32,000 nt of DNA from Geotalea daltonii FRC-32 (GTDB lineage: Bacteria > Desulfobacterota > Desulfuromonadia > Geobacterales > Geobacteraceae): contig NC_011979.1 of NCBI RefSeq assembly GCF_000022265.1, positions 1,140,001 through 1,172,000 on the forward strand, given 5' to 3'. Within the stretch, counting starts at the first letter, position 1. Every line of letters starts with the position of its first letter. Shown in pieces: positions 2,869 to 28,648 of the stretch. The notes beneath the pieces were generated by a model that was not told the DNA's origin, made no database searches, and worked only from the letters and a program-made list of their open reading frames with translations. A program made the translations under genes and the position numbers.

Positions 2869-3093
2869 GTGATTGATAAAGGGTGGATCGAAGCCAATGA
2901 GTTAAGTGTAGGTGACAAAATAATCACAAGAAATGGAAACGCATATGTTAAATCAATTATGTTTATAAAAACAGAAATACCTGTTCACGTATTTAATATT
3001 GAGGTAGAAAATAATGATAACTATCAAATTCAAGAAATGGGCGTAGTTGTAGTAGATAGATGGAATGCAGAAGCATTTTCATGTAAACCATAG
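2869..3093 (+). pseudogene. Orphan C-terminal Hint-domain (PT-HINT-like) fragment of a polymorphic toxin
   Basis: IDKGWIEANELSVGDKIITRNGNAYVKSI...VHVFNIEVENNDNYQI...GVVVV resembles the C-terminal half of Hint/intein-like domains found before toxin tips in Rhs-type proteins. It starts at a GTG directly after the truncated family-2 element, and only about 20 aa follow the Hint block. Confidence 0.5.
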
Positions 3094-3134: not shown

Positions 3135-3920
3135 ATGTATGACTGGTTCTATGAACAACTTAAATCAATAAAATACAAAAATTTTCATATTGTCGAACCA
3201 ATAGATCAAAAAACGATAGAAAATTTGAAAGTAAGACTTGGCGGGCTTCCAAAGACATATGCGGATTTTCTACAATCTTTTGGGAAAGCCAAGCTATATC
3301 ATGAACAGCACTACTATATCGTTGGCGTTTATCCATTGTATCCTGAATCAATAGATGAGAGCGGAGAGACGTTCTACTGCTTTGGCCATTATGATGCTGC
3401 ATCCGCTGGTTTTAAAGCAGCAGACATAAATGGGGGAAATGAAGCCGCAGTATTTGAAATGAACTCTTCTGGCAATTTAACAAGAGTAGCAAATGACTTT
3501 GCTAGTTGGTTTTTTGATAGATGCACTTTAGCGAGGAAGCGGTACTCCAAAAAAGAATGGGAAAAGATTTTAAATGAGCCCAAACCGTTCAACAATCGTG
3601 AGGTTGCCGTCGCTGAAGCCAGAAAGCTGTTTCAATGGCAGTTACTTGAGCGGACGCCGCAAGGCACCTTTCGGTTCCGCATATACAATAACTCCAAAAC
3701 AGTTCTGCCATTTTTGACAGTAGGAATTCGACATAATGAGAATAAGTTCGAAGGGGGAATATGGATCCCGGTAAGGCATGTTACTCCTGGACAGGTTAGA
3801 GATGTTGAAGCGAAGCCTTATCCTCACATTCCTATTGAGGAGCAAATTCCGTTTTCTATGCCTGATCCCACTCCTGAAGATAGAGCGATGTACTGGGAGT
3901 TCAGGAAAGCAGATCGTTAA
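3135..3920 (+). CDS. SMI1/KNR4 (SUKH-1) family immunity-type protein with an extra C-terminal domain
   Basis: The N-terminal pattern IDQKTIENLKVRLGGLPKTYADFLQSFGKAKLY is the classic SUKH/SMI1-KNR4 signature. An aaggaag RBS precedes the ATG. The gene lies immediately downstream of the toxin fragment. Confidence 0.7.
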   Translation: MYDWFYEQLKSIKYKNFHIVEPIDQKTIENLKVRLGGLPKTYADFLQSFGKAKLYHEQHYYIVGVYPLYPESIDESGETFYCFGHYDAASAGFKAADINGGNEAAVFEMNSSGNLTRVANDFASWFFDRCTLARKRYSKKEWEKILNEPKPFNNREVAVAEARKLFQWQLLERTPQGTFRFRIYNNSKTVLPFLTVGIRHNENKFEGGIWIPVRHVTPGQVRDVEAKPYPHIPIEEQIPFSMPDPTPEDRAMYWEFRKADR

Positions 3921-4035
3921 GCGCTGGTGAACAGGGATGTGAGAAGTATCAGCTCAGCAGTGAGACGCCTTCGGAGAGGATGCAGGAGACACCGAAGTTG
4001 GCGGAGAGGATGTCGTCACTTAAAGCTCTTCTTGA

Positions 4036-4130
4036 GGCCAACCGTAGGTGTCAGGGCCAACCGTAGGTGTCAGGCTTGACATTCGGACATTTGGCCAACC
4101 GTAGGTGTCAGGCTTGACATTCGGACATTT
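4036..4130 (+). repeat. REP-like family-1 repeats: 2.5 tandem copies of the 38-bp unit ggccaaccGTAGgtgtcaggcttgacattcggacattt
   Basis: A half unit lies at 4036-4054 and full units at 4055-4092 and 4093-4130. Each carries GTAG (4044, 4063, 4101) directly 5' of a small hairpin TGTCA-ggct-TGACA. Confidence 0.9.
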
Positions 4131-4147
4131 TGATATATTGTTTCCCC

Positions 4148-5098
4148 ATGGCCCGTAAACCTCGCATACATTACCCCGGCGCTGTCTACCACGTTATTCT
4201 GCGTGGCAATGCCGGCGAACCACTCTTTTTCAAGGATCGTGACCGATTTCGTTTCTATCTGCACATGCAGGAAGTAATAGAACGATTTCGTTGCCGGATT
4301 CACGGATTTTGCTGTATGACTAACCATGTCCATCTGATTTTGCAGGTGGAAGAGATTCCCCTCTCGCGTATCATGCAGAGTCTGTCGCTTAAATACACCA
4401 GATGGATCAATTACACCCGCCGGCGCACCGGGCATCTCTTCCAGGGACGCTACAAGGCAATCATGTTGGATGCTGACGCTTACCTGCTCGAACTCGTCCG
4501 TTATGTCCATCTCAACCCCGTGCGGGCCGGAATGACAGAATGCCCTGAAGGCTACCGCTGGAGCGGTCATAATGCGTATCTCGGCAAGGAGATGCTCCCG
4601 TGGCTGACGACCGAATGGGTACTTGCCCTGTTCTCGGGGGAAATCAACGCGGCCATCCAGCATTATCGGCAGTTTCTTTTAGATGGCATTGCCGAGGGAA
4701 GAAGAAATGAATTCCATAGTGGCACATGCGAGGGACGGATTCTTGGTGATGATTGTTTCGCAGATAAAGCGCTGACAAGGGCGAACCAGCATTGGCGGCG
4801 TGAATGGCAACTTGACGAACTCATCGATGCCATCTGCCGTCGTTATGGAATAGCAGCGAAAGAACTCAAAGCGCCTGGAAAGAAGAGGCCATTCAGCGAG
4901 GCAAGAGCAGTTGCTGCAGTTCTTGTCCAGGAATCACCGCATCTCACCCTGACAGAACTAGGCAAGGTGCTGCAACGTGATATCACTGCCCTTGGCAAGG
5001 CAGCGCAGCGCTTGATCCGGCAGGCTGATGCTCGGCTGATAAAACTCCTTGAGGAGTTACGGGGCGAGATGGAAGAAATGTCCGAAAGTCAAGCCTGA
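4148..5098 (+). CDS. RAYT-like HUH (Y1, IS200-like) transposase fused to a DnaA-domain-IV-like HTH (paralog 1)
   Basis: The sequence MARKPRIHYPGAVYHVILRGN leads into HUH motif NHVHLIL, GHLFQGRYK and the Tyr motif RYVHLNP. The C-terminal ARAVAAVLVQESPHLTLTELGKVLQRDITALGKAAQRL resembles DnaA C-terminal domains. The last 7 codons and the stop lie inside the right inverted repeat. Confidence 0.8.
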   Translation: MARKPRIHYPGAVYHVILRGNAGEPLFFKDRDRFRFYLHMQEVIERFRCRIHGFCCMTNHVHLILQVEEIPLSRIMQSLSLKYTRWINYTRRRTGHLFQGRYKAIMLDADAYLLELVRYVHLNPVRAGMTECPEGYRWSGHNAYLGKEMLPWLTTEWVLALFSGEINAAIQHYRQFLLDGIAEGRRNEFHSGTCEGRILGDDCFADKALTRANQHWRREWQLDELIDAICRRYGIAAKELKAPGKKRPFSEARAVAAVLVQESPHLTLTELGKVLQRDITALGKAAQRLIRQADARLIKLLEELRGEMEEMSESQA

Positions 5099-5129
5099 CA
5101 CCCCATTCCGCCCTGACACCCCATTCCGC
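5076..5129 (-). repeat. Family-1 REP-like repeat in inverted orientation (right end of the RAYT-1 unit), plus two copies of an 18-bp direct repeat
   Basis: aaatgtccgaaagtcaagcctgacac (5076-5101) is the reverse complement of gtgtcaggcttgacattcggacattt (4105-4130) with one mismatch. cctgacaccccattccgc then occurs twice (5094-5111 and 5112-5129). Confidence 0.9.
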
Positions 5130-5147
5130 CCCAAATAAACCGGCCCC

Positions 5148-5870
5148 CGCACCCACGTGCAGGACGTCACCACCTTCACTTACGACGCCAACGGCAACAT
5201 GCTGACAAAGACCGAAGCTTTAATCGGCACCACCCGTTATGACAACTACGACGCCCTGGGCAACCCAGGCACCATTACCGATCCAAACGGCAATGCCACC
5301 ACCTACACCTATGACACCGCAGGCAGGGCACTATTCGTCAAAGCCCCCGGAGACATAAACCCCACCGAATACACCTATACCACCGGCGGGTGTGGCAGCT
5401 GCGGCGGATCAACCAACCGCATCGCCTCCATCATCCAGCCCGAAGGAAACCGTATCGACTATACCTATGACACCAACGGCAAACTGACCAAGATTGCCGA
5501 TAGCCAGAATAACAGCATCAACTACAGCTACGACAGCGAAGGGAACAAACTGAAAGAAGAGATCAAAGATCCGTCAGGCATCCTGCAAAAGACCATCAGC
5601 TACCAATACGACGTCATCAACCGCCTCAAGCAGATCAAAAACCCCGATGCCACCTACACCGAATTCGGCTACGACGCCCTCGGCAACCGAACCAGCAGCA
5701 AAGACCCCAAACAAAACCTGACCACCAGCCAGTACGACGCCCTGAGCCGCCTCACCGCCACCATCCAGCCCGGCAATGTCACCACCGGCTTCACTTACGA
5801 TACAAATAACAACCTGACCACCGTAACCGACGCCAACAGCAACAGCACCACCTACAAATACGACGATCTG
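5148..5870 (+). pseudogene. Rhs/YD-repeat protein fragment, copy 1; no N-terminus, Rhs core end or toxin tip
   Basis: YD repeats are present (FTYDANGNM, YDALGN, YTYDTAGR, YTYDTNGKL, YSYDSEGNKL, FGYDALGN, YKYDDL). There is no real start codon. The frame runs into a stop supplied by the following REP-like repeat (..WGQA*). Confidence 0.85.
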
Positions 5871-5882
5871 GGCAGAAGGAGC

Positions 5883-5913
5883 CTATGGGGTCAGGCTTGA
5901 CTTTCGGATATTT
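5883..5913 (+). repeat. Solo family-1 REP-like repeat, inverted relative to the copy at 5076-5103
   Basis: The reverse complement of ggggtcaggcttgactttcggatattt matches aaatgtccgaaagtcaagcctgacacccc with one substitution and a 2-nt indel. Confidence 0.85.
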
Positions 5914-5922
5914 ACGGTGATG

Positions 5923-6017
5923 GAAAATCTTAAGGGGACGTTCCTGCTTTATGAAAATCTTAAGGGGACGTTCCGAAAATCTTAAGGGGGCGTCCCTGCT
6001 TTATTGCATTAGCCAAC
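5923..6017 (+). repeat. Three direct copies of a 22-bp family-2 REP-like unit gaaaatcttaaggggacgttcc, two of them extended by tgctttat(tgcattagccaac)
   Basis: The units lie at 5923-5944, 5953-5974 and 5975-5996. The core aaggggacgtt..tgct..at resembles the left inverted repeat of the family-2 element (ctagggggacgttgcttgctaat, 6755-6778). Confidence 0.8.
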
Positions 6018-6022
6018 ATTTC

Positions 6023-6745
6023 CGCACCGACGTGCAGGATGTCACCACCTTCACCTACGACGCCAATGGCAACATGCTAACAAAAACTGAGCCTCTCATT
6101 GGCACCACCACCTACGACAATTACGATGCCCTGGGCAATCCCGGCACCATCACCGATGCCAACGGCAATGCCACCATCTATACCTATGATGCTGCCGGTC
6201 GGGTGCTGACCGTCAAGGCCCCTGGGGATACCAACTATACCGAATATATCTACACCGCCAGTGGCTGCGGCAGTTGCGGCGGGGCCACTACCCGCATCGG
6301 CACCATCATCCAGCCCGAAGGCAATCGCATCGACTATACCTATGACACCAACGGCAAACTCCAAAAAATCACCGACAGCCAGAATAACAGCATCAACTAC
6401 AGCTACGACAGCGAAGGGAACAAGCTGAAAGAAGAGATCAAAGACCCGTCAGGCATCCTGCAAAAGACCATCAGCTACCAATACGACGTCATCAACCGCC
6501 TCAAGCAGATCAAAAACCCCGATGCCACCTACACCGAATTCGGCTACGACGCCCTCGGCAACCGAACCAGCAGCAAAAACCCCAAACAAAACCTGACCAC
6601 CAGCCAGTACGACGCCCTGAGCCGCCTCACCGCCACCATCCAGCCCGGCAATGTCACCACCGGCTTCACTTACGATACAAATAACAACCTGACCACCGTA
6701 ACCGACGCCAACAGCAACAGCACCACCTACAAATACGACGATCTG
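6023..6745 (+). pseudogene. Rhs/YD-repeat protein fragment, copy 2; a duplicate of 5148-5870 at offset 875 with no indels
   Basis: It has the same reading frame and the same first (gcacc.acgtgcagga) and last (tacaaatacgacgatctg) homologous bases as copy 1. The 3' ~370 bp are almost identical and the 5' ~350 bp are clearly diverged. Confidence 0.85.
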
Positions 6746-6754
6746 AACGGGCGG

Positions 6755-6800
6755 CTAGGGGGACGTTGCTTGCTAATTAACTATTGTCACTGAGCAATAG
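6755..6800 (+). repeat. Left inverted repeat of the family-2 RAYT-like element, plus a hairpin
   Basis: ctagggggacgttgcttgctaattaactattg pairs imperfectly (about 22 of 27 by eye) with the reverse complement of 7802-7832. It is followed by the hairpin ctattg-tcactgag-caatag (6781-6800). Confidence 0.65.
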
Positions 6801-6818
6801 TTATGTTGGCTTGCGCTC

Positions 6819-7787
6819 ATGCCACGCCAACCACGTCTTGACATACCCGACGTCCTCCATCACATCATTGTTCGCGGGATCGAACGCCGTGACATTTTCG
6901 CTGAAGATGCTGACAAGGAACGTTTTGTGGCAAGCCTTTCTGCCCTGCTCACGAAAAGCGCCACCAAGTGTTATGCTTGGGCGCTCATGTCAAACCATTT
7001 ACATCTGCTTCTCATGCCGACCAGAGTTTCTCTTGCTGAAACCATGCGCCGTCTGCTGACCGATTATGCCGTTTACTTTAATCGCAAATATCAGCGCTGC
7101 GGCCATCTGTTCCAGAACCGCTACAAGTCCATACTCTGCGAGGAGGATCCTTACTTTCTCGAACTTGTGCGCTATATCCATTTGAACCCGCTACGAGCGG
7201 GCATGGTTTCCGATATGAATGAACTGGGAAGCTACCCGTGGAGTGGCCATGCAGTATTACTCGGTAAGCGGGCCATGGAAGGTCAGGAGACGGACGAGGT
7301 ACTGACACGTTTTGGAAATACCAGGGCACGCGCAGTTCGTGGCTATTGGCAGTTCGTCGCCGATGGAATTACCACAGGACATCGCCAGGATCTGGTCGGG
7401 GGCGGACTTAAGCGCAGCCAGCCCGATTGCATGGAGATCAAAGAAATAGCCGCCTTTGATGAGCGAATCCTTGGCAGTGGCGGGTTTGTGGAAAAGTTGA
7501 CCCAGGGGGCCAGCGTGGTGGAGAAGAATAAACCACGTCTTGCCTTGGTTGAATTGCTAGACAGAGTCTGTGCCGTGACCGGAGTGGTTGCAGACCGAAT
7601 GCAGTGTCCCGGCAAAGAGCGCGCCGTAGCACGGGCAAAAGCTATCTTCTGCTACTTGGCAGTACGTGAGTATGGCTATACGGGCACAGAGGCCGGGAAG
7701 GTCGTAGGGATCGGCTCGGCAGGCGCGTCTATAGCGGCCAGACGGGGAGCGGAGTTATTGAAGAGTTACCCGGAGCTGGGGATATAA
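6819..7787 (+). CDS. RAYT-like HUH (Y1, IS200-like) transposase fused to a DnaA-domain-IV-like HTH (paralog 2)
   Basis: The sequence MPRQPRLDIPDVLHHIIVRGIERRDIF leads into HUH motif NHLHLLL, GHLFQNRYK and the Tyr motif RYIHLNP. The C-terminal ARAKAIFCYLAVREYGYTGTEAGKVVGIGSAGASIAARRG is DnaA-C-like. Confidence 0.8.
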   Translation: MPRQPRLDIPDVLHHIIVRGIERRDIFAEDADKERFVASLSALLTKSATKCYAWALMSNHLHLLLMPTRVSLAETMRRLLTDYAVYFNRKYQRCGHLFQNRYKSILCEEDPYFLELVRYIHLNPLRAGMVSDMNELGSYPWSGHAVLLGKRAMEGQETDEVLTRFGNTRARAVRGYWQFVADGITTGHRQDLVGGGLKRSQPDCMEIKEIAAFDERILGSGGFVEKLTQGASVVEKNKPRLALVELLDRVCAVTGVVADRMQCPGKERAVARAKAIFCYLAVREYGYTGTEAGKVVGIGSAGASIAARRGAELLKSYPELGI

Positions 7788-7801
7788 AATTGAAGGGGAG
7801 G

Positions 7802-7832
7802 CAGTTAGTTGATTAGCTAACAACGTCCCTCC
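7802..7832 (-). repeat. Right inverted repeat of the family-2 RAYT-like element
   Basis: cagttagttgattagctaacaacgtccctcc has the reverse complement ggagggacgttgttagctaatcaactaactg, which matches the left repeat at 6757-6786 imperfectly. Confidence 0.65.
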
Positions 7833-7984
7833 CAAGGACCCTCCCAAGGACCCTCCCAAGGACCAACAACGTCCCTCCCAAGGACCCTCCCAAGGACCTC
7901 CCTCCCAAGGACCCTCCCAAGGACCCTCCCAAGGACCCTCCCAAGGACCCTCCCAAGGACCCTCCCAAGGACCCTCCCAAGGAC
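7828..7984 (+). repeat. Tandem array of the 12-bp unit cctcccaaggac: 12 units in blocks of 3+2+7, interrupted by caacaacgtc and ctc
   Basis: Units were counted by hand. The first unit is the outer end of the right inverted repeat. The paralogous copy at 2838-2850 carries a single unit. Confidence 0.95.
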
Positions 7985-8032
7985 CCCAATCAGCCACTTT
8001 CCCAAATCGGTATCAATGATTTCTCGGGATAT

Positions 8033-8190
8033 GTGTCCCCACGTTGTTAAAAATGGAATGCGGTGATCCGAATGTGAAATTAGGCTTGGCGGCTCCTCGG
8101 AAAGGCCCAGTTAGGCTTACGTCGCCGCGCCTTGCCGGGAACCGAAATCCCTCGAAATTCTGGCAGAGAACTAACCTTAGAGGGCACTAG
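8033..8190 (+). repeat. Diverged copy of MITE-like family A (see 14868-15033 and 28307-28472)
   Basis: The right half cgtcgccgcgccttgccgggaaccgaaatccctcgaaattctggcagagaactaaccttagagggcactag is roughly 80 percent identical by eye to 28408-28472. The left half is more diverged, so the left boundary is approximate. Confidence 0.6.
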
Positions 8191-9759: not shown

Positions 9760-9925
9760 CTAGGAGTCTGTCGGACTTAGAATGAATCGGCTGCGAAAAT
9801 GGCAAATCGGTCCGGATCTCCGTAAATTTTCGACAAATAGTCCACTATTCGCTCTCAAATTTCCAAATATCCGTCCTCGATTTTCCATTCTCTCGCTTCG
9901 ATCCCTAAGTCCGACAGACTCCTAG
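9760..9925. mobile_element. MITE-like element family B, 166 bp, with perfect 21-bp terminal inverted repeats
   Basis: ctaggagtctgtcggacttag (9760-9780) is the exact reverse complement of ctaagtccgacagactcctag (9905-9925). There is no coding capacity. Confidence 0.85.
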
Positions 9926-14709: not shown

Positions 14710-14867
14710 TTTTCCAATAAAGCCTCCCCCCTGACTTTGTCAGCCTGTTTCAGGCAGCCTTTCCCCCCCTCAATTAACATTCCTCATTAAATACTTATGG
14801 CACTCAAAATGCTATAACGGGTCATTCGGAATTGTTTTTGCCAGAAAAATGGTCAAGAAACAAATAG

Positions 14868-15033
14868 CTAGTGTCCCGTGCGGTTAGTTCACCGCAAGAA
14901 TTCTGAGGGATTTTGGTTACTGGCAAGGCGCGGCGACGCAGGCCTAGCAGGGCCTAAGCCAAGGAGATGCAACGCAGCCAGGGGCCAAAAGAGCCAGAAT
15001 TGTAAGGAATGATTTAACCGATCGGGACACTAG
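14868..15033 (-). mobile_element. MITE-like element family A, 166 bp, with CTAG at both ends
   Basis: ctagtgtcccgtgcgg...ccgatcgggacactag is the near-identical reverse complement of 28307-28472. Confidence 0.85.
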
Positions 15034-15152
15034 TTACTTCGACAGGCGTTGCCGCTTGATGAATTGATTCGGCGTATTAACGGGTCACCAGGATTTTCAT
15101 GCTATTTAACGTAAATGTGAAAGAGGTTAAATTTCTCGAAGGAGGAACGCAG

Positions 15153-18100
15153 ATGGCAAAGCGAACAGCCGTAAAGGCCCGGGCATGGTTCGGGCAGCAG
15201 ATCGCACTCCTGTGCCTATTGCTCATATCAGTGGGCAGTGCCTGGGGCGCAGAGATGGTAACCAACGGTGCTTTCAGTGGCAGCGCCGGCTGGACATTCA
15301 GTACCGCCACCTATGACAGCACCACAGGCAGAAGTGCTAATGGTTCAGCCAAACTGTACATTGCGGCAAGAAACACAGCCACCGCCGGTACAGTGACTCA
15401 GTCGGTTTCCATTCCTGCCGGGTCAGTCATCAATGCTGTGGCCTTGTATTCCCAGTTGACCACCAATTATGAAACTGCAGGCGACAACATATCGGTAGAC
15501 CTGCGCTATGAAGATGCCACCACCGTCAACATTTTCAGTTCCGGTGAGCTTACCAACAGCTCTTGGACTGTGCGCAATGGTGCCGGTGTCACCTTAGCGC
15601 AGAATGTCAATCAGATTATCATCACCATGAACACCAAGGCGGGCAATAATGCGGCAGCAAACGCTTCCCTGTGGGTGGACGACCTGTCCATCAGCTACAC
15701 AGCGTCAAACAACGGTACTACTCCCGGCGCAATGACGTCCTTCGGCGCCACGGATAAACAGATCAGCATCCAAGTCGCCTTCACAGGCGATGATGATAAC
15801 GATAACAGTTGTGTCATTGCCTACGGCACTACTCCTGGTAACTACAACTTTACGGCGCCGGCGCCGGTGAAAGGTGCAGGTATTTACACCACCACCGTCA
15901 GCGGCCTTACCCCCAATACCCCCTATTATTTCCAAGCCACTTTTACAGATCCAGACAACACTCCCGGCACGGTGACCGGTACATTCTCCACGACCCCGCC
16001 TCTTTCGGACCCTCTGCTGCACAACAGCATCAACCTTGGCGCCAAGTACTGGTCGGCCAGCAGCGGTTGGGGTGTTGCCGGTGGTCAGTATGGAGAGTTC
16101 ACCTGTACCACCTGTCATAATCGAAACACCGGTAACATAAAAAGGGTAGTGGGTTCGATACCTGCCACCATCGGTACGGCAGTAGTGAAACCTGTAACAT
16201 ACCGCAACGTCACCGCCTTCGGTAACGATGCCGGCGGGCATACCACTTCGCAGCGCATCTGTGAAGTCTGCCACACCCAGACTACTGAGCATAAGTATAA
16301 CCAGACAACCGGCGACCTGAATCATAAGAACGCCAATTTAACGGACTGTACCTCCTGTCATGCCCACAACAAGTCCTTTGGTGCATCTTGTAACAGTTGC
16401 CACGGATATCCCCCCATCAACGCCACTCTTGGTACTGACGGTCTGGCCTCGCCTGCAACAGGCGTGCTGGTCTCCGGACAGGCTGGCGCCCATGCCACCC
16501 ACGTCAATGTCCGCGGAATGACCTGCGAAACCTGTCACCAGGGCTATACTCAAAACCCGATGGGGAATCAGACCCTGGAATTTGGTTTCAATATCAACGA
16601 AGGAACCATATCCGGATTCAAAGGCACCTTCAACGGCGGCAGTTTTGCCAGTAAAACGCCATATTCCCCTTACAGCAGCAACTCAACCTATACCGGCACG
16701 ACAGTCAACATGGCAACAGGCAACAACAATACCTGTTCCAACCTCTACTGTCACGGCGGATATGCAGGCAGCAACGGCTCCCTCACGGTTCCCTCCTGGA
16801 CCGCCGGTGCAACTGCCAAGGGTTGTGGTGCCTGCCACGGCGTCAGCCAGGCAACTCCTCCCACCTCCGGCAACCATGTCCGCCATACCGGAACGGCAAC
16901 GGGCAACATGGGCATTGCTTGTAGTGATTGTCACGGGACGCTTCCTGCCAATAATGCACATGTTAATGGCAATGTGGTAACAAGCCTGAATCCCGCATCG
17001 AAACTGCGGGCAAATGCCACTTACAAGGGCTTTGCCAACCAGTCTTCCGTAGCGCTCAGCTATGGCGCCTGTGCTGTTTACTGCCACAGCACGGTTCAGA
17101 ACTCGACGGCAACGGCGGTGGCGACTCCGACAGTGACGCCAGTATGGGGAGGCGCACCAATCGTCTCCTGCGACACCTCGGCATGCCACGGCAATCCACC
17201 GGCCAATGCCAACCATTCCACCCACGTAAATGCAGGCTACGAGTGTATTGTCTGTCATAATGCAGCGGGCAGGGACACTGCCAAGCATGCCGACTACAAC
17301 ATCGATGTTACCTTCAGCGGCGTTGCCGGTTCCGGCACCTACAGCCAATCCCCCAATGCCCCCGGCAACGGGTTCGGCACTTGTTCGGCGACGTACTGCC
17401 ACAACGGAGCAGCCAGTGCTCCCTCATGGAATGGCTCTTCCCTGCCGACTGATTGTACAGGATGCCATGGTAATGAAGTGACCGCGGCAACCAAGTTGAG
17501 TGGAGCTCACAATGCCCATCTGAACAATGCAAGCCAGGGGGGCGTCTTTACATGTAGTTCCTGCCACGCCCCGACTATTACCAATCCCAACAATAGAACG
17601 ATTACGAACAGCATTTCCCATGTCAACGGCATGCTCAACTACTCCGGTCTCTATGCGGGCAGGAACGCGACCTGTAGCAACATCTACTGCCACAGCACCG
17701 GCAAGGGCACCTTCGTCAATCCACCAACATGGGCCAGCGGCACAACCTTGGGTTGTAACGGCTGCCACGGCACCGGCGGCAATACAAGTGGTATGCCTTC
17801 ACCGGACGCCGTCGGCGTCAACAGCCACACCAAGCACCTGCCGACCCAGGACACCACCAAGTGCGTCTACTGTCACCGCACAACGGTCAACGGCACCAAC
17901 GCCATCATAACCGGCAGTCAGCACATCAATGCTGCACGCGATGTCCGCTTCAGCAAGCCCAATGCCTTCACCAACAACTCTGGTGCATATAATGCCGGCA
18001 ACAGGACCTGTTCGACCTCCTACTGCCACGGCACCGCAGCATCCGATGCCTGGGGTACCGCCGGTCCGCTGGCATGTAACAAGTGTCACGCCGGCAGTAA

Positions 18101-21100
18101 CGTCCTGCCCGGTGCCCATGGCATTCACTACAACACGGCAACTGTCGTCACCGGTCTCTACGGAGCGGCTCCCGGCAGCTCCAGCCAGAGTGCCACCGCC
18201 TACCAGTTTTCATGTTCAGCCTGCCACGGCACCGATGCCACTAAGCATGCCAACTACCCAGTGGCCAATGCATCCGATGCCACCATCTTCTTCGGATTCT
18301 CCTCCGCCGGCCGTGGACAGAACGCCACTAACGCCTATGTTGCCCAGGCAACCGGCTCCACCGACGCGGCTGGGTTCCAGTGGACCACCGGCGGTAACGG
18401 CAACTGTAGCGCCACCTACTGCCACAGCAACGCCCGCGGCAGTAACGGCGTAAGCGCATCGGTCAACTGGGGTATCACCGCCAGGGATGCGAGCTGCGGA
18501 ACCTGCCATGGCAACTCAACCACCACCATCGCCGGTAGCAACCCCGCCAGCACGCCCAGCATGCTCTCCGGTGCCCATAAGGCCCACATCTCTACAGTCT
18601 CTACCGGTGGCAGTTTTGCCTGTACCGACTGCCACGCTGACACCCTGAGCGGGAATACCACCATTGCCGCCAATGCTTATAACAAGCACGTCAACAAGTT
18701 CATCAACTACTCCGGCCGCTATGCCGGGAAGAACAAGACCTGTTCTACCTTCTATTGCCACAGTAACGGCAAGGGGGGTGCACCTGTAACTGCGCTGCCT
18801 GCCTGGACCAGCGGCACGACCCTTGGCTGTAACGGCTGCCACGGCTCCACCGGCAACGCCAGCGGTATGCCCACACCCGATGCCGTCGGCGTCAACAGCC
18901 ACACCAAGCACCTGCCGACCCAGGACACCACCAAGTGCGTCTACTGCCACAGGACCACCGTCAACGGCACCAACGCCATCATAACCGGCAGCCAGCACAT
19001 CAATGCTGCACGTGATGTCCGCTTCAGCAAGCCCAATGCCTTCACTAACAACTCTGGTGCATATAATGCCGGCAACAGGACCTGTTCGACCTCCTACTGC
19101 CACGGCACCGCAGCATCCGATGCCTGGGGTACCGCCGGTCCGCTTGCATGTAACAAGTGTCACGCTGGCAGTAACGTCCTGCCCGGTGCCCACGGCATTC
19201 ACTACAACACGGCAACTGTCGTCACCGGTCTCTACGGAGCGGCTCCCGGCAGCTCCAGCCAGAGTGCCACCGCCTACCAGTTTTCATGTTCAGCCTGCCA
19301 CGGCACCGATGCCGCTAAGCATGCCAACTACCCAGTGGCCGATGCATCCGATGCCACCATCTTCTTCGGATTCTCCTCCGCTGGCCGTGGCCAGAACGCC
19401 ACTAACGCCTATGTTGCCCAGGCAACCGGCTCCACCGACGCGGCTGGGTTCCAGTGGACCACCGGCGGTAACGGCAACTGTAGCGCCACCTACTGCCACA
19501 GCAACGCCCGCGGCAGCAACGGCGTAAGCGCATCCGTCAACTGGGGTATCACCGCCAGGGATGCGAGCTGCGGAACCTGCCATGGCAACTCAACCACCAC
19601 CATCGCCGGCAGCAACCCTGCCAGCACGCCCAATATGCTCTCCGGTGCCCACAAGGCCCACATAGTAGGAGTATCTACCGGCGGCGGCTTCGGTTGTGTT
19701 GACTGCCATGCAACTACGGTCAGCAGCAACACAACGATCGGGACAAGTCGCTACAATAAACATGTCAACAAGTTCGTTGATTACTCCGGCCTCTATGCAG
19801 GCAAGAACAAAACCTGCAGCAATATCTACTGCCACAGCACAGGCAGAGGCACCTTTGTCAATCCGCCCACCTGGGCAAGCGGCACAACCCTCGACTGTAG
19901 CGGCTGCCACGGCTCTACCTCCGCCAACCTCACCTCGGGCAGCCATAATGCCCACTTGGTCGCCGGTGCCACCTGCCAGAACTGCCACTGGAACACCACC
20001 CAGGCCAATGGTACAATTGTAGTCGTCGCCGAACACATCAGCAGAACAGTCGGCGTCAATCAAGGCAGTACCTTTAAATCGGCCGCCGTCAGCTTCACCG
20101 GTACCACGAGCTGTTCGGCAATTTCCTGTCACAGCAACGGCACCTCCGGCGGGGCAGCTGCAGCAACCTGGGGCGGTACCCTCAAATGTGACGGCTGCCA
20201 TCCCAATCTCTCCGCCGCCCACACGGTTCACGCCAACCTGAACCTGAGCACCGGCGTCACCTTCTACAACTATACCGCCATCAAGTCCACCGGTTCCGAG
20301 GCGGTCAACGGCGTCAAGTACGGCTTCGGCTGCGGTACCTGTCATCCACTGGTGGAATCGACCTACCATATGGACGGCAGCGTCGAGGTACAACTTGATC
20401 CGGCCACCGTCGGCGCCGGCGCCCTGCGCCAGAAAAACGGCGTCGGCGCAATAATGAACGGTGACAAGAGCTGTGATATGGTCTACTGCCACAGTGACGG
20501 CAAAAACACCATGGTTGCATCCGGCAACGGCCATGCACCTGTCTGGACGACCACCTTTGCAGCCCTCGGTGGCGACCGTTGTGCCAAGTGCCACGGCAAC
20601 TCCCCGCAGACCTCAGCCCACGACGCACACCAGGTCGGCATTCACTACAATAACATCTACAACGGGACGTCCGGCAAGCTGGCTGCTGGTGCAAGTGGCT
20701 CTTCCAGCCATGGTGTAGCAGGCCAGTCAACCACCATCACCTGTAACATCTGTCACAACAAAACTATGACTGCCGCGGCAAATGACCAGAACGCCCTCTG
20801 TAACACCTGCCACACCAAGGGTGTCAATGGCGCATTGGTTAAGGGTAATGCCAAAATTGCCGATTTCTCCTTCCACGTCAACGGCAAGAAAGAAATCGCC
20901 TTCCTGCCTTCGCTCAAGGTCGTCTCGAAGGCACAGCTCAGACAGACCAGCTTCTCCAACTACTCCGGTCTCTGGGTACGTAACGGCGGCAACTACAAGA
21001 ACGGCGTTAACGCCTTCGACACCGCCAAAACCGCTTTTGCGGACAACATGTGGAACTCGACGGCAGGTACCTGCTCCAACATCTCCTGTCACAACCTGAG

Positions 21101-21167
21101 AGTAGGCGAGGCCGTCAACTGGACCGACACCACCATCAGTTGTAATTCCTGTCACAGCAAGTTGTAA
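15153..21167 (+). CDS. Secreted giant multihaem c-type cytochrome with repeated CX4CH...CXXCH modules (Geobacter-type repeat family)
   Basis: The ATG at 15153 has a ggagg RBS. The signal peptide is ...LLCLLLISVGSAWG/AE. A CBM-like beta-sandwich (NGAFSGSAGW...) and an FN3-like domain (...SGLTPNTPYYFQATF) follow. Manual count then gives 30 CXXCH and 14 CX3-4CH motifs, many followed by an H-x2-H. Confidence 0.9.
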   Translation: MAKRTAVKARAWFGQQIALLCLLLISVGSAWGAEMVTNGAFSGSAGWTFSTATYDSTTGRSANGSAKLYIAARNTATAGTVTQSVSIPAGSVINAVALYSQLTTNYETAGDNISVDLRYEDATTVNIFSSGELTNSSWTVRNGAGVTLAQNVNQIIITMNTKAGNNAAANASLWVDDLSISYTASNNGTTPGAMTSFGATDKQISIQVAFTGDDDNDNSCVIAYGTTPGNYNFTAPAPVKGAGIYTTTVSGLTPNTPYYFQATFTDPDNTPGTVTGTFSTTPPLSDPLLHNSINLGAKYWSASSGWGVAGGQYGEFTCTTCHNRNTGNIKRVVGSIPATIGTAVVKPVTYRNVTAFGNDAGGHTTSQRICEVCHTQTTEHKYNQTTGDLNHKNANLTDCTSCHAHNKSFGASCNSCHGYPPINATLGTDGLASPATGVLVSGQAGAHATHVNVRGMTCETCHQGYTQNPMGNQTLEFGFNINEGTISGFKGTFNGGSFASKTPYSPYSSNSTYTGTTVNMATGNNNTCSNLYCHGGYAGSNGSLTVPSWTAGATAKGCGACHGVSQATPPTSGNHVRHTGTATGNMGIACSDCHGTLPANNAHVNGNVVTSLNPASKLRANATYKGFANQSSVALSYGACAVYCHSTVQNSTATAVATPTVTPVWGGAPIVSCDTSACHGNPPANANHSTHVNAGYECIVCHNAAGRDTAKHADYNIDVTFSGVAGSGTYSQSPNAPGNGFGTCSATYCHNGAASAPSWNGSSLPTDCTGCHGNEVTAATKLSGAHNAHLNNASQGGVFTCSSCHAPTITNPNNRTITNSISHVNGMLNYSGLYAGRNATCSNIYCHSTGKGTFVNPPTWASGTTLGCNGCHGTGGNTSGMPSPDAVGVNSHTKHLPTQDTTKCVYCHRTTVNGTNAIITGSQHINAARDVRFSKPNAFTNNSGAYNAGNRTCSTSYCHGTAASDAWGTAGPLACNKCHAGSNVLPGAHGIHYNTATVVTGLYGAAPGSSSQSATAYQFSCSACHGTDATKHANYPVANASDATIFFGFSSAGRGQNATNAYVAQATGSTDAAGFQWTTGGNGNCSATYCHSNARGSNGVSASVNWGITARDASCGTCHGNSTTTIAGSNPASTPSMLSGAHKAHISTVSTGGSFACTDCHADTLSGNTTIAANAYNKHVNKFINYSGRYAGKNKTCSTFYCHSNGKGGAPVTALPAWTSGTTLGCNGCHGSTGNASGMPTPDAVGVNSHTKHLPTQDTTKCVYCHRTTVNGTNAIITGSQHINAARDVRFSKPNAFTNNSGAYNAGNRTCSTSYCHGTAASDAWGTAGPLACNKCHAGSNVLPGAHGIHYNTATVVTGLYGAAPGSSSQSATAYQFSCSACHGTDAAKHANYPVADASDATIFFGFSSAGRGQNATNAYVAQATGSTDAAGFQWTTGGNGNCSATYCHSNARGSNGVSASVNWGITARDASCGTCHGNSTTTIAGSNPASTPNMLSGAHKAHIVGVSTGGGFGCVDCHATTVSSNTTIGTSRYNKHVNKFVDYSGLYAGKNKTCSNIYCHSTGRGTFVNPPTWASGTTLDCSGCHGSTSANLTSGSHNAHLVAGATCQNCHWNTTQANGTIVVVAEHISRTVGVNQGSTFKSAAVSFTGTTSCSAISCHSNGTSGGAAAATWGGTLKCDGCHPNLSAAHTVHANLNLSTGVTFYNYTAIKSTGSEAVNGVKYGFGCGTCHPLVESTYHMDGSVEVQLDPATVGAGALRQKNGVGAIMNGDKSCDMVYCHSDGKNTMVASGNGHAPVWTTTFAALGGDRCAKCHGNSPQTSAHDAHQVGIHYNNIYNGTSGKLAAGASGSSSHGVAGQSTTITCNICHNKTMTAAANDQNALCNTCHTKGVNGALVKGNAKIADFSFHVNGKKEIAFLPSLKVVSKAQLRQTSFSNYSGLWVRNGGNYKNGVNAFDTAKTAFADNMWNSTAGTCSNISCHNLRVGEAVNWTDTTISCNSCHSKL
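17790..19663 (+). repeat. In-frame tandem duplication inside the cytochrome gene: 17790-18589 is repeated at 18864-19663 (period 1074 bp = 358 codons)
   Basis: The two 800-bp blocks differ at only a few positions by eye. The protein block GMP(S/T)PDAVGVNSHTKHLPTQ...SGAHKAHI occurs twice. Confidence 0.95.
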
Positions 21168-28180: not shown

Positions 28181-28310
28181 TAGCTGGTTTCCATCCGGAA
28201 AGGGTTCTTTTCTGCCCTGGCGGCGTCAATCTGCGGGCTTACTTGTGCGACGTACCGATGTACGTCTCCGCGCAAGTCCCTGATTTCCTCGCTTTCCGGA
28301 TGGAACCTAG
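28181..28310. mobile_element. MITE-like element family C, about 130 bp and highly structured
   Basis: The terminal inverted repeats are ggtttccatccggaaag and ctttccggatggaacc. Internal hairpins are gacgtac-cgat-gtacgtc and acttgtgcg...cgcgcaagt. Its right CTAG is shared with the next element. Confidence 0.6.
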
Positions 28311-28472
28311 TATCCCGATCGGTTAATTCATTCCTTACAATTCTGGCTCTTTTGGCCCCTGGCTGCGTTGCGTCTCCTTGGCTTAGGCCCTGCTAGGCCT
28401 GCGTCGCCGCGCCTTGCCAGGAACCAAAATCCCTCAGAATTCTTGCGGTGAACTAACCGCACGGGACACTAG
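28307..28472 (+). mobile_element. MITE-like element family A, 166 bp, with CTAG at both ends
   Basis: ctagtatcccgatcgg...ccgcacgggacactag is the reverse complement of 14868-15033 with a few mismatches. Confidence 0.85.
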
Positions 28473-28648
28473 CTGGAAAGGAGAAAGAAAAAATGTCGGG
28501 ATGTTTAATCATTGTAAAAAAATCCGACGAAAAAACTGGGCTCTTTGGTCATTACCGGTACTGATTGTATCGAAAAATTAACCCCTTACGCGCGGGCATA
28601 AAATTTGTATTATTTAACCTGGAGCAGATTGGAAAAAATGGAGGCCCT

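Follow-up and report, generated by a model that had tools for sequence, protein, structure and literature searches.

A probable TIRtron in Geotalea daltonii FRC-32 and the inverted repeats that flank its Y1 transposase gene

We analyzed a 32,000-nucleotide (nt) stretch of the Geotalea daltonii FRC-32 genome (contig NC_011979.1, positions 1,140,001 to 1,172,000; hereafter, the window), with emphasis on a transposase-like gene and the repeats that surround it at positions 4036-5131 of the window. This region (hereafter, element 1) is, both in its identity and in its general mode, probably one copy of a TIRtron, i.e., an insertion sequence-like unit of ~1 kb with a single TIRYT gene and 27-bp terminal inverted repeats. 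It is a further member of a known, very common, and mechanistically unstudied class. A preliminary description of the same DNA had recognized a protein of the REP-associated tyrosine transposase (RAYT) type fused to a DnaA-type helix-turn-helix (HTH), had noted that the class is little studied, and had read the surrounding DNA as repetitive extragenic palindromic (REP)-like repeats, each with a GTAG next to a hairpin. The fusion and the little-studied status of the class stand, whereas the attractive REP/RAYT reading is corrected here.

In the sections of Di Nocera et al. (2013; PMC3733652) that describe TIRtrons, TIRYTs are RAYT-like genes flanked by inverted repeats, most of which share the motif GGGGWSAS. 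The sections of Quentin et al. (2018; PMC6006769) on TnpAY1 subclass 2.1 describe a subclass 2.1.2 with a Bac_DnaA_C-like C-terminus, equate it with Group 1 of the RAYTs of Bertels et al. (2017), and place subclass 2.1 in 14.9% of strains. Element 1 resembles the TIRYT/TIRtron system, as presented in those sections, in encoding a RAYT-like Y1 protein in the range of ~310-330 amino acids (aa) that carries HUH and Y---NP motifs and ends in a Bac_DnaA_C-type HTH, in the placement of its gene between inverted repeats rather than REPs, in the overlap of the right repeat with the 3' end of the gene, and in repeats that sometimes form dimers or clusters. A C-terminal HTH extension, which in the TIRYTs so described is of the Bac_DnaA_C, HTH_23, or HTH_28 type, is present in element 1. 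The motif GGGGWSAS occurs exactly in a solo copy of the repeat in the window (GGGGTCAG) and with one mismatch in both copies that flank the gene (GGTGTCAG). Neither Geobacter nor Geotalea is listed in the sections of PMC3733652 and PMC6006769 that concern these elements. TIRYT-type genes are one of the largest groups of Y1/HUH genes; no mechanism for them was found in the literature searched, and searches for literature after 2018 on the class of Y1 + DnaA-HTH fusions returned nothing.

The encoded protein and its flanking inverted repeats

The gene of element 1 occupies positions 4148-5098 on the + strand, from an ATG to a TGA stop at 5096-5098, and encodes the 316-aa product that the preliminary description had identified, with the motifs NHVHLIL at residues 59-65 and RYVHLNP at residues 118-124. 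A program-made list of open reading frames (ORFs) places the start at a TTG at 4130; homologs all open with MARKPRI at the position of the ATG at 4148. A Geotalea daltonii FRC-32 protein with the annotation 'transposase, Y1_Tnp domain-containing' matches the product at 100% identity. Residues 13-121 match Pfam Y1_Tnp (5.6e-15; 56 bits versus a cut-off of 23) and residues 223-285 match Pfam Bac_DnaA_C (1.3e-8; 35.2 bits versus a cut-off of 31.5), both above the gathering score. Residues H60, H62, Y119, N123, and P124 are invariant across 35 aligned homologs, and the Y---NP signature agrees with the one given for the TnpAREP-like 'class 2' in the sections of Quentin et al. (2018; PMC6006769) that define it.

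A profile of the family, compared with solved structures, matched the DNA-binding domain of DnaA (3pvp; 4.9e-10) and TnpAREP (4er8; 3.7e-3). The AlphaFold2 model (mean predicted local distance difference test score 80.7) comprises an HUH/Y1 core at residues ~1-180 with H60, H62, and Y119, a low-confidence or disordered linker at residues 189-216, and a DnaA-domain-IV-like HTH at residues ~220-314. In Foldseek comparisons, the N-terminal half of the model resembled TnpAREP (4er8_A; E 1.9e-6, template-modeling (TM) score 0.75) and also the TnpA proteins of IS608 and ISDra2, and the C-terminal half resembled the DNA-binding domain of Mycobacterium tuberculosis DnaA (3pvp_A; TM score 0.88, root-mean-square deviation 1.5 Å over 95 residues). 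The Pfam matches and the structure model bear out the fusion: an HUH/Y1 nuclease from the RAYT-like (TnpAREP-like) branch is joined to a DnaA-domain-IV-type HTH. The latter shares the fold of DnaA domain IV (3pvp, 1j1v), and its 'RD..T/A.' segment lines up with RDHTT, the motif through which DnaA contacts bases; AAA+ and the other domains of DnaA are absent.

TnpAREP of Escherichia coli (4er8) has the closest solved catalytic core, from which the same HUH and single-tyrosine chemistry would be expected, and its gene likewise lies between inverted copies of its cognate repeat. That protein is ~165 aa in length and has no HTH, and it acts on single-stranded DNA, at a stable hairpin that is tagged with GTAG and present in hundreds of copies. 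The association of TnpAREP/RAYT with REP-BIME was reportedly described by Ton-Hoang and by Messing in 2012.

The gene-proximal left end of element 1 (4093-4130, + strand) consists of a tip (4093-4103), a head (GGTGTCAGGC; 4104-4113), and two boxes, namely box 1 (TTGACATT; 4114-4121) and box 2 (CGGACATT; 4122-4129). The right terminal inverted repeat (5076-5102, - strand; reverse complement GGTGTCAGGCTTGACTTTCGGACATTT) encodes the last seven codons of the gene (MSESQA) and its TGA stop. Positions 4104-4130 and 5076-5102 are complementary at 26 of 27 positions. The left end is preceded by an additional complete 38-nt tandem unit (4055-4092, + strand) that comprises the tip and the entire left inverted repeat and is 100% identical to 4093-4130, and this unit is preceded by a 19-nt partial unit (4036-4054, + strand) made up of the 11-nt tip and the first 8-9 nt of the head (GGCCAACCGTA-GGTGTCAG). 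Tandem partial copies of this kind at the tips of the element are referred to here as stutters. The right tip carries one as well (5094-5131, - strand), in which an 18-nt unit (CCTGACACC-CCATTCCGC) consisting of the outer 9 nt of the head and 9 nt of tip is repeated 2.1 times. The 2.5 upstream copies of a 38-bp unit (19+38+38 nt at 4036-4130) and the downstream inverted copy that supplies the end of the gene had thus been correctly described. The 19-mer core of the repeat has 0.00 expected chance occurrences in shuffles of the window.

To place these ends in context, we compiled relatives through a scan for an exact 22-nt pattern in one genome of each species, which yielded 26 loci, none of them from G. 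daltonii, and through a protein-guided metagenome scan, which yielded 29 loci. Loci with the 22-mer were from Geobacteraceae, Desulfobulbaceae, Desulfuromonadales, Parachlamydiales, Neptunomonas, and Anaerolineae metagenome-assembled genomes (MAGs). Of 21 full-length relatives, whose identity goes down to 47%, roughly 17 have the gene between 24-32-bp inverted repeats that start with GGGGTCAGGC. Between the left repeat of relatives and the ATG there are ~18-25 nt, and the final ~22 nt of the coding sequence fall within the right repeat; in the window, a comparable 17 nt separate the inner end of the left repeat from the ATG. In a few complete elements the inverted repeat reaches 5-8 nt further outward. 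No target-site duplication was found at 14 complete elements.

Alignment of 39 distinct ends from their outer edge reveals that the ends are layered into a tip of ~5-11 nt with little conservation, a 10-bp head that hardly varies (GGGGTCAGGC; GGTGTCAGGC in element 1) and in which G2, G4, C6, A7, G8, and G9 do not vary, and two direct 8-bp boxes. The inner 16-18 bp behind the head are lineage-specific but match between both ends of one element. Two direct 8-bp boxes were recovered in all six sequence groups, e.g., TTGACATT / CGGACATT in the window and TTGAGTAA / TTGAGTTA, CTGCATAT / TTGCATTA, and CCAAGTTG / ACAAGTTC in three of the other groups, and the mean self-identity of the inner part is 0.63 at an offset of 8 and at most 0.32 elsewhere (6 independent groups; shuffle p ~0.0005). 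The HTH segment around 'RDxxxL' changes with box group (RDITALGKAAQR, RDLSALSLAARK, RAPSTFSRHIGK, RDVGTMSSGLRR, RDVSTISIAVRK), a link that is suggestive only because phylogeny is uncontrolled. The DnaA box TTWTNCACA is absent from both strands of positions 4000-5200, and the likely target of the HTH is the pair of lineage-specific 8-bp boxes rather than a DnaA box.

Box 1 of the left repeat is also a perfect -35 hexamer (TTGACA). The sequence TATTGT follows 16 nt downstream and the ATG 7 nt after that, without a Shine-Dalgarno sequence, such that the promoter-like site at 4114-4141 (+ strand; -35 TTGACA, -10 TATTGT) agrees with consensus at 10 of 12 positions. A promoter built into the left end, as in many insertion sequences, would fit the observation that repeat and ATG are 17-18 nt apart, with little variation, in the closest relatives. 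Since the ATG lies 7 nt after the -10 and lacks a Shine-Dalgarno sequence, a leaderless mRNA is possible. The organization of the inner repeat into two direct 8-bp boxes, with box 1 a perfect -35 hexamer, may be new.

Mobility and competing explanations

Homologs of the protein are abundant. A word-indexed search returned more than 7,000 close homologs, nearly all with both Pfam domains, and an exhaustive search of 50%-identity representatives returned 37,984, 17,239, and 1,974 clusters at E ≤ 1e-3, 1e-10, and 1e-30, respectively. A plasmid scan yielded only 28 distant matches, all with less than 41% identity. The MAG of Geobacter sp. UBA4057 contains the element at five loci with different upstream flanks, among which the 5' end of the element is shared at 95-100% identity; all five contigs break off within the element after 106-300 nt, as expected when an assembler meets a repeat that is present in several copies. 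Gene-less solo repeats are present in many MAGs, and a Parachlamydiales MAG (locus L003, 2850-3045) carries a gene-less miniature of ~190 bp in which two inverted repeats of the element-1 family (family 1) face each other, each with partial and whole-repeat duplications, and which resembles a miniature inverted-repeat transposable element (MITE) or a REPIN. The description of the copy in the window as 'active or recently active' is plausible. Two database proteins, P0121 (1680 aa) and P0122 (1052 aa), contain 12 and 7 stretches that match TIRYT, respectively; they may represent read-through of tandem element arrays or assembly artefacts.

The multi-copy state in UBA4057 bears on an alternative in which the gene is domesticated and non-mobile, its product is a DNA-binding factor, whether of the host or selfish, the inverted repeats serve as operators or persist as relics (the left one over the promoter, the right one over the stop), and the repeats at the tips result from replication slippage. 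The gene is apparently single-copy in G. daltonii, several relatives occupy one fixed locus across many samples, and the left repeat contains the -35 hexamer, all of which is consistent with domestication, as are the low copy number and divergent intragenomic copies reported for class 2 in the relevant sections of PMC6006769. Yet UBA4057 has at least five near-identical copies with different flanks, the window itself holds a 99%-identical truncated second copy of a paralog, and solo repeats and a miniature element exist. The ends are nearly identical in unrelated phyla and the catalytic HUH and Tyr residues are invariant, and stutter breakpoints (see below) cluster at one position and are not confined to the G-run. 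We therefore regard domestication as improbable.

A second alternative, which corresponds to the preliminary description, holds that a single-copy domesticated RAYT recognizes GTAG-tagged single-stranded hairpins and that the 38-nt units are REPs that it disseminates. The top NCBIfam match of the protein is indeed REP_Tyr_transpos (NF047646; 2.7e-19), the top structural match is TnpAREP 4er8, relatives are labeled 'REP element-mobilizing transposase RayT' in JGI annotation, and the apparently single-copy gene has a solo repeat 0.8 kb away. Moreover, the left-hand copies hold a GTAG and a 5-bp palindrome, although one G separates GTAG from TGTCA. Nevertheless, the match to REP_Tyr_transpos reaches 69.5 bits against a cut-off of 80. 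Neither the GTAG nor the hairpin is conserved here, in contrast to the E. coli system. The GTAG is restricted to the left-hand copies of the window; in its place, GGGG or other bases are found in the right copy, in the solo copy, and in every relative. CTTTGG, CTCTGG, or TACTGG occupies this position in the closest relatives (78-84% identity), and the conserved tetranucleotide over the 39 ends of relatives is GGGG. Accordingly, GTAG is a local variant, and the right-hand copy, which had been considered the deviant end for its ATGGGG, is closer to the family consensus than is the left-hand copy.

The hairpin fares no better. Folded as DNA, TGTCA-GGCT-TGACA has a free energy of -4.7 kcal/mol (z = -1.2), which 22 of 200 shuffles equal, and the right-hand copy has -2.2 kcal/mol (z = -0.26). 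The bases that would pair with GTCA vary freely among relatives (TTGAC, TAGAC, TTGAG, CTGCA, TTCCA, TTAGAG), the G4-C15 pair is broken at 19 of 39 ends, 28% of cells remain unpaired even if G-T pairs are allowed, and several right ends lack a palindrome altogether. No measure of covariation of the hairpin pairs over the 39 ends exceeded that of shuffles. The DNA folds of four versions of the unit and the pair counts over 39 ends thus lend no support to a REP hairpin, and a GTAG tag was rejected for its non-conservation in relatives. Whole elements are multi-copy in UBA4057, and the sections of Quentin et al. (2018; PMC6006769) on subclass 2.1 state that REP-like structures were not found beside its genes. 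We consider the REP/RAYT explanation highly improbable.

Least probable of all is classical IS200/IS605 'peel and paste', in which strand-specific single-strand excision is guided by subterminal hairpins and the inverted repeats are incidental: the Y1 HUH fold shared with the TnpA proteins of IS608 and ISDra2, the Pfam Y1_Tnp match, and the lack of an observed target duplication agree with it, but IS200/IS605 elements work on one strand and have ends that are asymmetric and bear subterminal hairpins, and their transposases are ~130-150 aa, whereas element 1 has symmetric 27-bp inverted-repeat ends without conserved hairpins, an extra duplex-binding domain, a Y motif of the class-2 type (Y---NP; as described in PMC6006769), no tnpB partner among the ORFs of the window, and only 18.6 bits against a cut-off of 55 for transpos_IS200 (NF033573). 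The curated RAYT and IS200 identities were both rejected in that the respective models score below their cut-offs.

Stutters at the tips and a possible mechanism

The TIRtron interpretation leaves the short tandem repeats at the tips of element 1 to be accounted for. Such stutters are not peculiar to the window: a tandem partial copy adjoins 44 of 85 unique bona fide ends, as compared to 4.3% of random positions in the same loci. The stutter unit in relatives comprises 5-12 nt of tip and the first few bases of the head. The commonest inner breakpoint lies 7 nt into the head (GGGGTCA^GGC), with 20 of 44 breakpoints at positions 6-9. Six of the 44 stutters are duplications of the whole repeat with periods of 37-45 nt, comparable to the 38-nt unit of the window; duplications of 37-45 nt were observed at loci L003, L009, L030, L031, and L050. 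The family of the second TIRYT-type gene in the window (family 2; 33% identical) also stutters, with 13 units of 12 nt in the window and, among relatives, four units of GGACATTAG, two units of GACGATT, and one 64-nt end duplication. Neighboring stutter units bear different tips at L006 and L012, so that separate events, and not simple duplication, may lie behind some arrays. The occurrence of a stutter at about half of repeat tips, with a preferred breakpoint at GGGGTCA^GGC, may be new. Keyword searches of the available portions of PMC3733652 and PMC6006769 found no mention of two 8-bp boxes, a -35 in box 1, or a tip stutter with a preferred breakpoint.

The commonest breakpoint makes GGGGTCA^GGC a tentative candidate for the site of nicking, a placement that we hold to be possible but somewhat less than an even chance. 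A mechanism can be envisioned in which the HTH domain binds the duplex boxes and thereby recognizes the element's own ends, which would place the HUH/Tyr119 center on the invariant head and lead to a nick at GGGGTCA^GGC or close to it, perhaps on the strand that reads outward, i.e., as GCC^TGACCCC. Symmetry of the ends would direct nicks to opposite strands at the two ends and would leave no target duplication. Stutters would arise if the freed 3'-OH was extended by a dozen or so bases and the tyrosine-linked 5' flap was re-joined, since a nick followed by short extension and re-joining yields a tandem copy whose inner boundary is fixed and whose outer boundary varies. The 19/38-nt and 18-nt repeats at the tips would then be by-products of repeated end processing rather than functional REP arrays. 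Because box 1 in the left repeat would at the same time serve as the -35 of the gene, binding of the ends would also shut off transcription.

Taken further, stutters might be scars of transposase chemistry that mark the in vivo nick site of a third Y1 mode, beside IS200/IS605 peel-and-paste and REP processing, in which the HTH reads two boxes and loads the HUH nuclease on symmetric ends. We consider this extended proposal rather unlikely, if conceivable. The element raises the question of how a single-strand-specific nuclease uses double-stranded inverted repeats, and the window offers a compact and apparently intact specimen with explicit predictions: the boxes would be the binding site of the HTH, the head would contain the nick site TCA^GGC, and box 1 would serve as the element's own -35.

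A number of observations weigh against the TIRtron interpretation and the mechanism envisioned for it. HUH enzymes act on single strands, whereas the ends of the element are duplex. The breakpoints are not unique: 12 of the 44 fall within the G-run, and another 6 coincide with the repeat's inner edge. Stutters could form without a nick at TCA^GGC if slippage occurred in the G-run or if replication stalled at an end occupied by protein, and such processes probably explain part of the pattern. Phylogeny confounds the association of box group with HTH sequence. The inner part of family-2 repeats is palindromic (AGCTAATTAGCT) and not a direct repeat, which rules out a two-box layout for family 2 and indicates that this layout is not general. 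With regard to mobility, the element-1 gene is apparently single-copy in G. daltonii (P0001 on one contig), and the low intragenomic copy number of the class, as given in the sections of Quentin et al. (2018; PMC6006769) that treat it, is also compatible with domestication. Biochemical data for any member of the class were not found in the literature searched. Three further models of stutter formation were also considered, namely footprints of insertion and subsequent excision, heads that are target sequence only (as in IS608), and run-off copying of an excised end.

The second element and other features of the window

Element 1 lies within debris of mobile elements and polymorphic toxins, including fragments of RHS genes, and several related features of this region had gone unnoticed in the preliminary description, among them the right-tip repeat at 5094-5131, a solo repeat, a paralogous element with its array, and a truncated copy of the latter. 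The solo family-1 repeat (5876-5913, + strand), the one such copy in the 32-kb window, has the consensus form (GGGGTCAGGCTTGACTTTCGGATATTT), has no gene behind it, and abuts the end of an RHS fragment. The second, paralogous TIRYT element (6758-7829, + strand) comprises a left repeat at 6758-6783 (GGGGGACGTTGCTTGCTAATTAACTA), a gene at 6819-7787 that encodes 322 aa with 33% identity to the first protein, and a right repeat at 7806-7829. It is followed by an array of 13 units of 12 nt (CCCTCCCAAGGA; 7827-7986, + strand), an expanded tip stutter of which each unit consists of the last CCC of the repeat and 9 nt of flank. Relatives of this second element carry family-2 repeats as well.

A 5'-truncated copy of the second element that is 99.2% identical to it (2229-2848, + strand) retains the 3' two-thirds of the gene and the right repeat and has one 12-nt unit (2826-2848). 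The presence of one unit in the truncated copy versus thirteen in the full copy indicates that the array grew after the duplication and, given 99% identity between the copies, that such arrays change quickly. Three units of 22-30 nt (5923-6004, + strand), written either as GAAAATCTTAA-GGGGACGTTCC(TGCTTTAT) or as GAAAATCTTAAGGGGACGTTCC(TGCTTTAT), tentatively resemble the family-2 head GGGGGACGTTGC by eye and may be a solo family-2-like head with a tip stutter. If the mechanism outlined above is correct, the odd short tandem arrays of the RHS region would be explained as by-products of the ends of mobile elements.

Two RHS-repeat fragments with 90% identity, fragment a (5147-5870) and fragment b (6022-6745), have identical start and stop points. 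Each begins right after the tip of a repeat and ends right before the head of a repeat of these different families: fragment a lies between the family-1 right end and the solo family-1 head, and fragment b lies between the family-2-like solo head and the family-2 left end. These borders could be shared target sites or the product of rearrangement between elements. A similar context was observed in metagenome and Logan contigs (L061-L066), where a family-2 gene (601-1599; 73% identical to the second gene of the window) lies directly downstream of an RHS/YD-shell toxin gene and an ORF of 92-94 aa; this may reflect tolerance of such loci to insertion or a real association. Other components of the debris are a Mutator/IS256-type transposase at 25-1000, which runs off the start of the window and is represented by two overlapping ORFs (25-510 and 353-1000) that were probably split by a frameshift, a PT-HINT fragment at 2869-3093, and a SUKH-1 immunity gene at 3135-3920.

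Further repeats were noted elsewhere in the window. An unrelated, MITE-like repeat of ~168 nt with ends CTAGTGTCCCG...CGGGACACTAG occurs in full at 14866-15033 (+ strand) and 28307-28474 (- strand), with 97.6% identity between the full copies, and in part at 8103-8176; Rfam returned no match in the window, this repeat included. The ORF at 15099-21167, which encodes 2022 aa, contains an internal tandem duplication of 1.2 kb (17635-18851 versus 18703-19919) with 88% identity. Lastly, positions 9760-9925 form a long imperfect palindrome of ~170 nt that is 75% identical to its own reverse complement.

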